DNA of 62,796 bases, filler included, from Collodictyon triciliatum (GCA_043381765.1; 13 parts of 13 records of this genome joined end to end with filler, not necessarily neighbours in it); one strand, 5' to 3'; numbered from the whole stretch's first letter, positions 38,021 through 61,968 are shown. Program-made: numbers and translations. Notes: a model not told the origin generated them from the letters alone.

Positions 38021-39136
38021 GATAACTACCGAGTTTTCAATTTTAATATAACTTCAGTCAAACACTCAATTTAAACATAAAAATACTGCACAAAATCAAT
38101 TCAGGTAAAATTAAGCATCTACTGAGACCCTCAAAATGCGCGCATTGTGGCAAACAAATACACAAAGTTTTTTTATAAGTGATTTGAGACAAAACGCTGA
38201 GAGCTGATTCAGCGAGTTCGAAAGGACGGCCGTATAGCCATTGCGACTGAAAGTCAACATATCGGCCCCAGACAACATGATTACCGCCGCAAGTGTGGAT
38301 AGGATGCTTGTTTGAGATGCATGTTTGGTGAGAGGTTTATAGGGTGGGTTCTGTCGGGGCCAAGGTAAGGGCTTGTTTGTCATTTTTGAATTTTAATGAT
38401 ATTGATAATACACATAAATGCAAAATAAAATATAAATTGATTATAGGGATAGAATGCGATTATAAAGTATTTTTAATCTTATTCTATATACTAATCATTC
38501 TTTCATATCATTCTGGTTCTTTCTTGGATTCATCAAAGCTCCTGCTTTTGTCAATGCAGATTTAATTCGATGGTTGCCTGTGTGCAATAAACTGCTATGC
38601 ATGGGTATACTTTCGTTGTATAAAAAGTGTTGTGGCCAGAAAGGGATAAAGCCAAGTTCGTCACAACCTTTGGAATAAAGTTTATTCGTTTACAGGCTGA
38701 ATGAGAAAGGAAGGAAAAGAAAAAGAAAAAGAAAAAGAAAAAGAAAAAGAAAAAGAAAAAGAAAAAGAAAAAGAAAAAGAACAAACAAACAAACAAACAA
38801 ACAAACAAACAAACAAACAAACAAACAAACANNNNNNNNNNNNNNNNNNNNNNNNNNNNNNNNNNNNNNNNNNNNTTAATTAATTAANNNNNNNNNNNNN
38901 NNNNNNNNNNNNNNNNNNNNNNNNNNNNNNNAAAAAAAAAAACAAAAAAAAAAAAAAAAAAAAAAAAAAAACAAAAAACAAAAAACAAAAAACAAAAAAC
39001 AAAAAAAGAAAAAACCCACACACCCAGCTGGAAAAAAAAAACAAAAAACAAAAAACAAAAAACAAAAGAACAAAAAACAAAAAACAAAAAACAAAAGAAC
39101 ACTTTGAATCGAATAAAGGAAAAAAAAAGCAAAAGA

Positions 39137-41268
39137 ATGGAAAACTTCCGTGGACTGGTCGGGAATCGCTACGAGGAAGGTGGCAGCAAAGAACTCGGAG
39201 AAGTTGAAATCTGTTGGGACACGCTTGGGTTCACAAACTCGGATGACGAGAATGCTGGCAGCCACAATGGTGGGCAGAAGAAAGAAGAGGAGGAGAGCCG
39301 CCCTTTGAAGGATTCAGGGAAAAGCCCCGACGCTGGGAACTGCAGCTCCGAAGATCCGCAAACAATCTCCGTCGAGACTGAAGGTATTGCCATCGAAAGG
39401 GCACAAGAGGCGAGTGACTTGGCCAGCGAAACACTTGTCGAGATGCCGTTTGGCTCGCAGGTGATTCGGCTTTATCAGAGAAAGGGCTTGGGCATTGGGC
39501 ATCAAGTTTGGATGGCGGTAATGTTTTTCCTTTCTGAATTTCTTGACTGCTATCGATGGCTTTTTTTTCTTTTCTCCTCGCTGTTTCTGTTTTGCCTATT
39601 GTCCTCTCTCTCTCTCTCTCTCTCTCTCTCTCTCTCTCTCTCTCTCTCTCTCTCTCTCTCTCTCTCTCTCTCGGTTTTCACTTTTCCATCCCCATTCCCT
39701 ACGAGCTTTATATGCACCAGAAGTTTTTCTCTCTTTCTTTCTTTCTTTCTTTCTTTCTTTCTTTCTTTCTTTCTTTCTTTCTTTCTTTCTTTCTTTCTTT
39801 CTTTCTTTCTTTCTTTCTTTCTTTCTTTCTTTCTTTCTTTCTTTCTTTCTTTCTTTCGATTTAATTCGGAAGGCTCAGTGAAGATTTTGAAACTTTTTTT
39901 TTATCTAATGAATACACAACTACAAAGTAGAATTCTTTTGATTACAAAATGGGTTTATAATTTTAGCTGTCTGTTCATTAATATTATTTTTTGTTCAATT
40001 TCGCATGATTTACAACAATCTTCATACAATAGCAAAAAAATGTATATTGAAGATATGATTTATAATTTTTTTTTCGTGATGAATATTTTTGTAAGCAGAG
40101 CCTTTGCCTTTGCAAGTATTTGGATGAGAACAAAGAAAGATATGATTTCAAAGGAAAGAAAGCCCTTGAAATTGGAGCGGGTGCTGGTGCTGCAGGACTG
40201 GCTTGTGCTTTGTTGGGTAATTGACAAAATTTTGCACTCTAACTTAACAGTCATATGTCTGCATTCAATGCAGCGCGATGTCATGAAAACAAAAAAAGTA
40301 ATATAAAATTAACATGATGAATATATGTATATTCGAAATTATTATTATCATCACCATATAATCAATCCTTATAAACCCATCTGAAAAGTACGATTTCTTC
40401 TTTACAGTTTCGAGCAAAGTCTTGCTAAATTTAATGTACATTCAGGTGCTTACACGGTTTTGACAGATAAAGGAGACGTAATTCCTACGATGCAAAGAAA
40501 TATTGATGCTAACAATCTAACGAGTGAGATGGCATCAGCACAAGACTTGACATGGTTATTTGTTTATTTTTATTCATCCAGGGCAACAAATATGCCATCA
40601 ATCTGTAAAAGCATAAATTAAATCCACTTATCACTGAGCCACTATGACCAGGGGTGAAACAAATCTATCAGCGTTCAAGGAAGCATCGTTTGATTATATT
40701 ATCGCCGCCGATGTGGTTTACCATGAATATTTGTTTGATTTGTTGTATCAGACTATGACTGACCTAACACAAGGTGATTCCATTGTGGTGATGGGATATC
40801 ATATTTCAAAATATTAATTAGAAATACAGAAAACATATCCAGAGATAAGAACAGGTGAAGTGACATCATTATTGGTCGCCGCGTATATAATATTATTATA
40901 TTTCAAAAAAAAATAGGGAGTATGGAAAATGTCCAAATAATTTGGGCGCATGAATGGAGGCGAAGAAATGTGGAAAAACGGTTCTTCAAGAAACTGTTTA
41001 AACTATTTGATGTAGAGACAATAGAGGTATATGAATATTAATGAATATATTTACACTTATTTATTACACCCTTGCTCTGAACAAAATGAGTAAAAATGAT
41101 TTCTTTCCATTTTCACTGCACTCTGTAAAGCATTCGCAATACCTTGGTGTGAATAATTAATGAATAATTGTATTATTTATCATGTGAACAAAGCCGGAGC
41201 TACCCGAATATATCAAAAAGGGAAAGATAAATATATTTTTGATGAAGCGGAAGAATACGACCAAATAA
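39137..41268 (+). CDS. METTL21/EEF1AKMT-like protein lysine methyltransferase (Methyltransf_16), 6 exons
   Basis: IRLYQRKGLGIGHQVWMASLCLCKYL...FKGKKALEIGAGAGAAGLACALLGAYTVLTDKGDVIPTMQRNIDAN...LTWG...FDYIIAADVVY (motif I plus DxxY). Confidence 0.9.
39601..39857. repeat. (CT)n and (CTTT)n microsatellites in intron 1 of the methyltransferase
   Basis: Seen directly. Confidence 0.9.
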
Positions 41269-59543: not shown

Positions 59544-61968
59544 ATGTTCCTACCAAATGACTACCGAAGGAAACAATTCGTTGGTCATCGCGTCGTTTTC
59601 TTCATAATGATTGCGGTGGTTTCCTCGCTAGCTGAATCTTTAGGTATTTGTTGATAAATCATAAAGGCTTTTTAACATCGCCGCACTTTGAATCGAATAA
59701 AGGGGGGAAAATCATAAAGGCTTCCTTCCCAAAAAAAAAGATTCGTAAGCAGGATTATGCACTGTTTAACTTCATTGCCATACTGCTTAAATCAATTATT
59801 TTTATTTATTTTTGCTTAGTTATCCAAAATGCCACGGAAGCTGAGAACTCTGTTAAGAATGATGGGGTGAGGATGATGAATAACGCTGGTATGAGTGTTT
59901 CATATCTACGTGGTAACATTCATATACCTACTCCAAAGCGTCAGTTCAGACTAGCCGAACAAACAAAAAACTCCACAGGTTACCCCCAGAATCATATGTT
60001 ATATTGTATATCTCTTTTTTATAACTCGGTCTTGAACACTTTTGTTTGTGGTTTTTTTTTAACTCTGTGCTTCGTACAGATATGGGTTATTTGCCTTCCC
60101 CAAAATCAAATGACACAAGTTATCATTTTTCTTCAGAAAAACTGACAAACAATACGGAGGAGCATAAATATCCAAATCACTATAACCAACTTAACGGAAC
60201 GAATCCTGATACTGTTTCAAACTCAACACAAATACATGATGATTCATTTAATATTCCTTCAAGAAATATTACAGCACCATTATGTACCCCAGTCAACGAG
60301 ACGAGCATGCATTTTGAGCAACATATAAATAAAACGTTGGAGCCAAAAGGCAATACCAATACCATATCCCCATTCATAGACATCAGAGCTCCGTCTTTTA
60401 CAAACAAAACGACCTTACATGAAAAGTGTGATAGTTCCATGGAAGGAAATCAGGATCATAAAGTTATGAATGGAAGCACCACATGCTCAAAATTTTTGGA
60501 AAACACGAATCACACTATTGAATCGACAATACCCTCTGCAGGAAATGCAACACAAAGTGAAGCATTTGCTTCTCTGAGAAACAATCATACAGCAGAACTG
60601 ATGGACTCTTTTACTATTAGAAATACGTCATTGCTTCGTAACACAACCAGCCACCTAGCGTCAAATCACTCACTAGTTGAGTACCAGAGAACAAATTCAA
60701 CTTTGGAATTACTGACTGGTGATGTCCATGAATCAAACGCAACCAAAAACCATACAGGCTTTTTAATCTCCAACAATACGATGCAACACAACACCACAAA
60801 TAAGCAGACGCCGGGAAGGAACCATACTTTATCCACTAATGAGCCCCACGACCTGTATTCAAATACTACAAAAAGAGACATCAATAATGATAGTCAAAAT
60901 GAAGGTTTGAATAAAAATGATGTGCTGAATGGCCATGAAAATTTGAGAGAAGGAATCACCCAAAGAAATACCTCTGCAACAAACGAGGATTTGGAGCAAA
61001 CCAAAAGCGATAAAGTCAAGAAGAAAGAGACAAGACCAAGAGCTAAGAAACTAGATGGGAATGAAGATGGCATTGCAATAAAGGAGACAAAGCCGGGAAA
61101 CAAAGACGATGATAAGGGAAATAATGAGGAAAACGATATTGAAGGGAATCACATAGACGAAAAAATCGACCCGAATGATGACGAGGCAGACGGAAATGAT
61201 GAGGATAAAGATGGTGATATTTTAGGCAATAATGTCGAACAAGAAAATGACGACGCACAACCGAACGACGGCGATTTTGCTGATAATGAAAACGAGTATG
61301 TTGAGCTAGAAAAAAATGAGCTGCATCAGAATCAACATGATGACCAGGATGTTGGCGAAGGTGATGACTTTGTGGATATGGTTGTTAACCAAAATGATGA
61401 TGACGAGAATAACGGCAATGTTAAGCAGAAAGCTGAAAATCAGAAAGGAGACCAGAAAGGGCCTGGTATAGGTAAATATGAGACGCCTATCATGATGGAA
61501 AAAGCGAACTCCTTACAGAAGCTGAAATTCACCAGTATTTCCCCAGAAAGCGGACCAGAAAACGGCGGGACATACGTTTGGGTAAGTGGCTCAGGGTTTT
61601 TCAGCCAGAAAGGCTTGTTTTGTTGCTTTGGAAAGAACTGTGCGGATGTAGTAATCACAAGTGATAAGAAGGCCAGATGCACCTCACCGCCCAAAGATAA
61701 AGGAGCGACCAACACTGTATCTCTTCGCTTGTGCATAGACAAAGCAGATCGATGTTTAGAGAATTACAAGTCATGGGAGTACACCACACTGCCTGCCCAT
61801 GTGTCAGGGTCTTTAAATACTGAGACCGGGTCTGCCACGGCCTTCTCATCAATGCGTTTGATGGCGGTTGGATCTTTTCTGCTCCTGGTGGGACATACAC
61901 TTTACAAGCGGCAACGCGGCCCTGTCCCACGCGCACATTCAGATACAACTTACCGAAAGGATGAGTAG
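59544..61968 (+). CDS. Type I membrane glycoprotein: signal peptide, N-glycan-rich and acidic stalk, IPT/TIG domain, TM helix; 3 exons
   Basis: Exon 1 contains VVFFIMIAVVSSLAES. Many NxS/T sites and a D/E/N-rich segment follow. FTSISPESGPENGGTYVWVSGSGF...CCFG...RCTSPP is IPT/TIG-like, then LMAVGSFLLLVGHTLYKRQR. Confidence 0.8.
59656..59723 (+). mobile_element. Longest family B insertion (38 bp) with 15-bp TSD
   Basis: AAATCATAAAGGCTT [TTTAACATCGCCGCACTTTGAATCGAATAAAGGGGGGA] AAATCATAAAGGCTT. Confidence 0.8.

Follow-up and report, generated by a model that had tools for sequence, protein, structure and literature searches.

What moves a sequence that is barely longer than the target-site duplication (TSD) made by its own insertion? 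The question is raised by a stretch of 62,796 nucleotides from Collodictyon triciliatum (GCA_043381765.1; 13 parts of 13 records joined end to end with filler), referred to at its full length as the window. The original prediction described seven copies of a short A-tailed insert here, family B, and offered two origins for it: recurrently truncated 3' ends of a long interspersed element (LINE), or an independent micro-retroposon. The first origin is borne out, since a parent was found and copy lengths are continuous; the second is not, since the inserts have no sequence of their own and their 5' end varies. Judged by sequence, the inserts are the truncated extreme 3' tip of a ~5.9 kb L1-type LINE and no separate micro-retroposon, and their 5' ends pile up at a two-base position 18-19 nt from the tip.

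Family B copies and their parent LINE

We observed ten matches to the 17-mer core of family B in the window at three or fewer mismatches, seven of them exact, where 0.54 would be expected by chance, and none of 100 shuffled windows reached ten. In the genome as a whole (G000, an intron-rich eukaryote, 75.4 Mb in 14,576 contigs) the exact 17-mer occurs 2,028 times, and the reversed-pattern control returned 0 matches. The family is very abundant, as had been suspected. The density of about 1 per 9 kb had been given for the window; the genome mean is ~1 per 37 kb, and the window, with 7 exact copies in 63 kb, is ~4 times denser. Density is also uneven between contigs, with 0 copies at window positions 1-33700 and ten at 33848-62796.

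Extension of the longest copies towards an autonomous-type partner, a route suggested in the original prediction, led into a LINE with an open reading frame 2 (ORF2). Among 30 loci with a longer 5' extension, many run on into one common sequence, and copy lengths span ~11 nt to kilobases without a break into ORF2. The longest extended copy, on contig C401, enters an ORF2 with a reverse transcriptase (RT) and a C-terminal zinc finger; walking upstream reached an APE endonuclease (Exo_endo_phos, PF03372, E 2.9e-12, in the C929 ORF2), and ORF2 gave matches to RVT_1 (E 3.1e-26) and then zf-RVT (E 1.6e-7). Among solved structures the RT is best matched by human L1 ORF2p (E 2e-32; R2, E 3e-19), and the endonuclease domain had no match at 1e-3. 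Database matches that name an element call it LINE-1-like or TX1, at ~30% identity. By these best matches, taken without a tree that includes other APE clades, the parent RT appears closest to L1/Tx1. Long copies are 86-96% alike, and the 5' end of the element at C929:3662-3668 is shared by ten other contigs; the ~5.9 kb length is an estimate, the sum of the overlapping C929 and C2558 spans. The ~2 kb between this 5' end and ORF2 consists of broken open frames, of which one piece was scanned and had no Pfam match, and an Rfam and tRNA search of the element also gave no match. As had been stated, the parent of family B is not in the window, in which the 3' end of a sister LINE, family A, lies at ~5095-5655.

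In 24 of 29 long copies the ORF2 stop (TAG/TAA) lies 74-79 nt upstream of the in-frame-looking TGA of the tip, so the inserts are pure 3' untranslated region (UTR). This upstream stop, together with 8 of 20 measured spacers being out of frame, ruled out that the insert is the last codon and stop of ORF2, released by ribosome-linked cleavage. Contigs of runs X1 and X2, which we take to be RNA and in which splicing is seen, cover the entire 2.2 kb LINE part (24 of 30 bins of the stretch); depth was not used, and this coverage speaks to neither copy number nor expression.

At locus L094 (G000:C1933, 4939-6790) the part before the RT of a family B copy is joined straight to the part after it, in one 530-codon open frame (part masked), and L092 (C1468) ends at 1841 at the same junction; the C1933 copy is possibly a non-autonomous derivative. 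A long copy at L093 (G000:C2558, ~250-290, minus strand) carries a perfect 20-bp palindrome in place of the 3' tip before its A-tail. This palindromic tip was considered as a natural test of the hairpin discussed below and dropped, the copy being unique in the genome. A 597-nt copy at L041 (2109-2180, minus strand; G000:C139) starts ~30 nt downstream of a tRNA-Glu gene; this single case resembles the TRE3 elements of Dictyostelium, which are tRNA-targeted.

The insertions bear the marks of target-primed reverse transcription (TPRT), the origin that had been proposed: TSDs, an A-tail, a preferred target and empty-site paralogs. We analysed 132 copies from L001-030, L147-186 and the window, with usable flanks in 129. 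A TSD was called at a score of at least 10, a threshold at which short TSDs are invisible. At this score, 65 of the 89 exact copies have TSDs, as do 74 of all 129, compared with 0 of ~1,280 shuffled pairings; the lack of TSD enrichment that would have spoken for another origin was therefore not what we found. Their length is 15-18 bp in 53/74 (mode 17), the target consensus is W-T/A-W, with the slash at the nick (T at -1 in 57/74, A at +1 in 68/74), and the A-tail has a median of 7-8 A. The 92-copy sample behind the TSD and junction counts contains 7 copies from the window and lacks 10 of the longer copies. Among junctions without extra bases (n = 55), 28 are blunt and 27 show 1-4 nt of microhomology, whose mean of 0.73 exceeds the 0.39 of shuffled pairs (p 0.0002, n = 55); extra or mismatched bases occur in 19/74. 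One stub, at C264:3983, sits inside another repeat, and two paralogs of that repeat are shorter by exactly 44 bp, which corresponds to the insert and one copy of the TSD. In several copies (L022, L040, L059, L214, L232, L265 and others) a T-run stands directly after the tip, replacing or following the A-tail, which suggests an inverted tail or a second priming event.

Length profile and the two-base spike

Lengths were counted from the last G before the A-tail; with the 3' end fixed in this way, the genome-wide counts are exact. We found 2,271 copies that reach 11 nt, 1,840 that reach 14, 1,761 that reach 15, 1,545 that reach 17, 1,402 that reach 18, 582 that reach 20 and 417 that reach 23, and the reversed-pattern control gave 0-1 matches. 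The per-base loss over these successive steps is 6.8, 4.3, 6.3, 9.3, 35.6 and 10.5%, and the 5' end lies at nt 18 or 19 in 820 of the 2,271 copies (36%). The contrast at 18-20 nt is conservative, because the background loss figures include point mutation. The original prediction had named a smooth continuum up to a full LINE as the sign of ordinary truncation, and half of this is seen: the continuum exists, but it is not smooth.

We rejected three other readings of the pattern. A subfamily variant at nt 19-20 is excluded by the conservation of these positions: among 16 long copies chosen regardless of tip, position 19 differs in 0 and position 20 in 1. An artefact of the 17-mer query is excluded by the 11, 14 and 15 nt counts and by a motif-blind TSD scan, which returned 44 family B, 7 family A and 15 other inserts, among them a few shorter tips, compared with 5 in reversed sequence; the scanned loci had been chosen for family B, and this ratio is not a genome rate. 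An 18-nt periodicity (18, 36, 54) is excluded too, the mode at 36 nt being modest and that at 54 nt absent (0/52).

In 95 of the first 100 places listed, 62 copies are no longer than 20 nt, 83 are no longer than 45 nt, and 12 exceed that length. For copies of at least 30 nt (468 in all, of which the first 100 were measured), the loss is ~5% per base at 30-38 nt and drops below 2% beyond 45 nt, with a modest mode at 36 nt (9 ends among 79 copies at risk); 46 of them reach at least 68 nt and 17 at least 300 nt, many of these values being lower bounds. At the shortest end of the series, an insert of poly(A) alone, flanked by a 17-bp TSD, lies at L177 (7520, plus strand), and tips of 12-15 nt with 17-18 bp TSDs occur at L057 (minus strand), L162 and L034.

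Short and long copies of family B were alike in every respect compared. The G-run does not differ (p 0.43), the A-run has a median of 7 vs 8 (p 0.23), TSD decay is 27/967 vs 8/250 and TSD frequency 51/70 vs 14/19. A 5' junction overlap of at least 1 nt is present in 27/55 mostly short copies and in 15/32 longer ones, and TSD length and junction type are common to both. Short and long copies look like products of the same age, from the same masters and through the same joining step.

Family A, whose tip ends in TGAAAGGAAGAATAAAA, offers a comparison within the same genome. Its long 3' ends in the window are at 5095 and 18600, and its short copies there measure ~40-55 nt and have TSDs. Most of its copies are likewise tiny: of 40 local ones, 35 end no more than 37 nt from its 17-nt core. 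But its 5' ends spread over several broad modes with no spike comparable to that of family B. Early termination thus appears to be a property of both LINEs or of the host, and the spike is a feature of family B. Short family A copies with TSDs are nested in family B bodies or tips (L068, L071, L127, L173), and these could order the two families in time.

Within the window, all seven places given for the core were right (39103, 41927, 54782, 54835, 56533, 58896 and 59687, on three contigs separated by N), as were the three clean TSDs (Table 1). The count of seven is correct for the plus strand and incomplete overall, three minus-strand copies having been missed (35878-35894, 49492-49508 and 51647-51663). 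Six of the ten copies pass the TSD test, namely the three clean ones and those at 35894 (minus), 51663 (minus) and 39103. The identical start base of the copies at 41926 and 56532 (the same C) was confirmed, and two minus-strand copies start there too. All copies had been described as intronic or intergenic. This holds for 56533, which lies in an intron that X1 and X2 contigs show as spliced; the copy at 39103, ~10 nt upstream of a probable ATG (39138), may be 5' UTR, and for the others the assignment is based on sequence alone. In the run contigs, where coverage is sparse, none of the window copies had a polymorphic empty allele.

Table 1. LINE-derived copies and genes in the window, and parent copies outside it. 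Positions are those of the window unless a contig is named.
Feature	Position	Strand	Description
LINE-tip copy	35857-35934	-	52 nt at 35870-35921 (42 nt tip + A-tail); 13-bp TSDs 35857-35869, 35922-35934
LINE-tip copy	39082-39137	+	~20-nt tip + A9 (39100-39128), A-rich tract; degenerate 18-bp TSD, 2 mismatches
LINE-tip copy	41908-41968	+	18-nt tip + A-tail (41926-41950); perfect 18-bp TSDs 41908-41925, 41951-41968
LINE-tip copy	49485-49509	-	18-nt tip, degenerate tail; TSD test not passed
LINE-tip copy	51628-51682	-	18-nt tip, 2 substitutions; TSD ~13-19 bp (A-run ambiguity)
LINE-tip copy	54781-54805	+	18-nt tip, 1 substitution; flanking repeat degenerate, under TSD threshold
LINE-tip copy	54835-54857	+	17-nt tip + A6; TSD test not passed; covered by contig of DNA run X3
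LINE-tip copy	56514-56573	+	24-nt insert (56532-56555); perfect 18-bp TSDs 56514-56531, 56556-56573; in minus-strand intron 56411-56590; also in DNA run X3
LINE-tip copy	58896-58920	+	17-nt tip, decayed tail; TSD test not passed
LINE-tip copy	59656-59723	+	38-nt insert (59671-59708; 31 nt = LINE tip); perfect 15-bp TSDs 59656-59670, 59709-59723
Sister LINE family A, 3' end	5095-5660	+	end of ORF2; 35% identity with family B ORF2 across 108 aa
Family A copy	9470-9535	+	short, TSD-flanked
Family A copy	18600-18945	+	long 3' end
Family A copy	28560-28630	+	short, TSD-flanked
Family A copy	34195-34270	-	short, TSD-flanked
Family A copy	35160-35225	-	short, TSD-flanked
Family A copy	58980-59060	-	short, TSD-flanked
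Methyltransferase-like gene	39138-41290	+	judged by eye
Isocitrate dehydrogenase gene	45500-47530	+	PF00180
TIG-domain protein gene	60025-61968	+	PF01833
Parent copy, outside window	G000:C929 from ~3663		
Parent copy, outside window	G000:C2558		
Parent copy, outside window	G000:C401:10370-12601		

Candidate causes of the early stop

We judge it reasonably likely that an early stall of the RT, with premature closure of the insertion, explains the spike. This account starts from what was observed, namely identity with the LINE 3' end, TSDs, target preference, empty sites and the 5'-end spike, and builds the rest by inference. Going by known L1 biochemistry, ORF2p would nick the bottom strand at T/A and prime on the short A-tail (median 7-8 A), and the top strand would be nicked ~17 nt away, early in the reaction. 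To this we add that the RT would be poorly processive over the first ~40 nt, with its strongest pause at nt 18-19. The pause site would coincide with the foot of a small hairpin of 4-6 bp that folding predicts at nt 21-36 (extendable to 18-39), met by the RT at 18-20, and also with the 5' edge of an alternative predicted terminal mini-hairpin at nt 2-18. The end of the complementary DNA would then be joined to the top strand in one of three ways: blunt, through microhomology of 1-4 nt, or with a small number of bases added. Beyond ~45 nt most copies run on for hundreds of bases; the stubs would be dead on arrival. Premature second-strand synthesis has been proposed as a truncation model in passages of a structural study (PMC7617806).

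Several observations weigh against this account. Every long copy examined is broken by stops or frameshifts, and no intact parent was seen. Short copies are over-represented overall as a result of assembly collapse and of selection against long inserts, and 30 of the 100 copies of at least 30 nt end at a contig end, a gap or the edge of the examined stretch. The fold z-scores are ~0 (0.46, 0.07 and -0.01), no better than those of shuffles, the terminal mini-hairpin alone comes to 0 kcal/mol, and the predicted pairing shifts with the stretch that is folded. Compensatory or two-sided changes were not seen in the 16 long copies, in which the only variation is A/G at nt 21, compatible with U36 either way. 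Nor, lastly, do the junction data distinguish a stalled RT from run-off on a short RNA. Neither assembly collapse nor selection is able to produce a two-base spike, and the intact TSDs on both sides argue against the stubs being junction remnants of collapsed long copies. Because the z-scores are ~0 and covariation is absent, we put forward the predicted hairpin as the cause of the pause as a hypothesis.

Run-off would apply if the LINE RNA were clipped to 18-19 nt plus A-tail and kept on ORF2p, whether through an exonuclease that stops at the ORF2p footprint or the hairpin or through cleavage by an endonuclease or RNA interference, the inserts then being full copies of a processed mini-RNA. 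The modal 5' end falls exactly on the 5' base of the predicted terminal mini-hairpin, and the weaker mode at 36 nt on that of the next predicted hairpin; yet the latter mode fell from 7/30 to 9/100 with the larger sample. The blunt junctions (28/55) and those with extra or mismatched bases (19/74) are such as run-off could give, but 5' ends also occur at 11-17 and 20-45 nt, with junction types and tails alike, and the microhomology is enriched over shuffled pairs. The full-length TSDs would also fit, short TSDs being described in parts of a junction survey as mainly accompanying 5'-truncated L1 (PMC2912911), although our threshold is blind to short TSDs and 19 of 70 short exact copies lack a passing one. 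On balance we regard a clipped template as unlikely. We are a little more doubtful of a length or geometry gauge, by which the insertion would be resolved after a fixed amount of synthesis (~25-29 nt including the tail), set by ORF2p-DNA architecture or host repair, with the RNA sequence irrelevant. Short inserts do total 25-29 nt in 45 of 58 copies, their element part (18 nt) is near the TSD length (mode 17), and the tiny copies of family A (35/40) point to a host or enzyme effect in common. However, the 5' position shows no trade-off with tail length (Spearman -0.09, p 0.48, n 58) or with TSD length (-0.14, p 0.31), both comparisons having low power, and the broad modes of family A include no comparable spike.

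The strong modal start and very high copy number could also bring to mind an independent micro-SINE (short interspersed element) with its own master copy and fixed ends, borrowing the LINE machinery. We find this very improbable: the insert is LINE tip only, with no sequence, head or promoter of its own and no Rfam match (L061, L135), its 5' end is not fixed, lengths are continuous into the LINE, and no diagnostic tail variant sets it apart from long copies. An artefact of adapter, assembly error or chance has only the fragmented assembly in its favour and is practically negligible, given site-specific TSDs, diverged copies, continuity with the LINE, empty paralogs and controls of 0-1 matches. 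The copy at 56533 is neither adapter nor assembly artefact, because a contig from X3, an independent DNA run, carries it too, and the library-adapter origin raised in the original prediction fails.

Comparison with known systems and meaning

By the features tested, the inserts are a 5'-truncated product of an L1-type LINE. As with truncated copies of human L1, the ORF2 has an APE-RT-zinc finger layout, the inserts are A-tailed, the nick is at T/A, most copies are truncated, and blunt, microhomology and extra-base 5' junctions are mixed. The TSD peak is 15-18 bp here, compared with 14-16 bp for human full-length L1. The target is a relaxed WT/AW, whereas passages of PMC7617806 give TT/AAAA for L1, and the tail of ~7-8 A contrasts with the ~20 A that human ORF2p requires in vitro, as part of another study reports (PMC10830416). 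The main difference is in length. Human somatic truncated L1 has a median 5' breakpoint at 5.52 kb of ~6 kb, with ~0.5 kb copied, according to parts of a preprint (bioRxiv 10.1101/2024.08.27.596794), whereas 62 of 95 sampled copies here have at most 20 nt, and 36% of all ends fall on a single two-base position. Spread truncation points are typical, if not strictly diagnostic, of L1 TPRT products, unlike the 820/2,271 at 18-19 nt.

Other very short insertions offer partial parallels, again as described in parts of the sources cited. Solitary poly(A) insertions, the shortest class of severely truncated human L1 copies (bioRxiv 10.1101/2024.08.27.596794), likewise reflect a very early TPRT stop with a full TSD; they stop inside a long poly(A), whereas the short tail here keeps a recognisable tip and reveals the preferred base. 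In SINEs that share a LINE 3' tail and in stringent-type LINEs the mobilised unit also bears the LINE 3' end, and a 3' stem-loop may be involved (PMC3747384). Unlike SINEs, the inserts here have no tRNA, 7SL or 5S head, no internal promoter and no fixed ends; unlike in stringent-type LINEs, the stem-loop is weakly predicted, with no covariation. Tailless retropseudogenes of small RNAs (PMC2912911) are likewise short, L1-made and flanked by TSDs, but they are 3'-truncated host RNAs without an A-tail, whereas the inserts here are A-tailed LINE pieces. The junction survey by Kojima left out inserts below 50 bp, as passages of it state (PMC2912911). A literature search that did not extend to most subscription papers, Repbase, bioRxiv supplements or organism-specific work turned up no LINE for which a dominant truncation product of ~18 nt is described.

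The process itself, truncation during TPRT, is known; its two-base stop, here quantified genome-wide, is unusual in being so short and so sharp. The stubs are most likely inert and the chemistry is that of ordinary TPRT. With every stub, an intron or gene flank gains ~43 bp, insert and TSD together, in which AATAAA is present, and repeat annotation with minimum-length filters would likely miss these stubs. No settled explanation exists for the 5' truncation of most LINE insertions; the structural work cited above proposes premature second-strand synthesis (PMC7617806). More than 2,000 natural events of one family give a base-resolved profile of high early loss, a two-base spike and long runs after ~45 nt, which would allow the pause, short-template and geometry models to be tested directly using a single ORF2p and a small set of RNA mutants. 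It is conceivable, if rather unlikely, that an early exit is built in, with a discrete A-tailed RNA fragment of 18-19 nt, or a strict checkpoint between initiation and elongation, as the main substrate or product of retrotransposition. If so, thousands of events would form a natural base-resolution record of TPRT abortion, in a size class missed by 50-bp cut-offs, and a retroposon of ~26 bp, hardly longer than the TSD it makes, would be this genome's dominant mobile unit.

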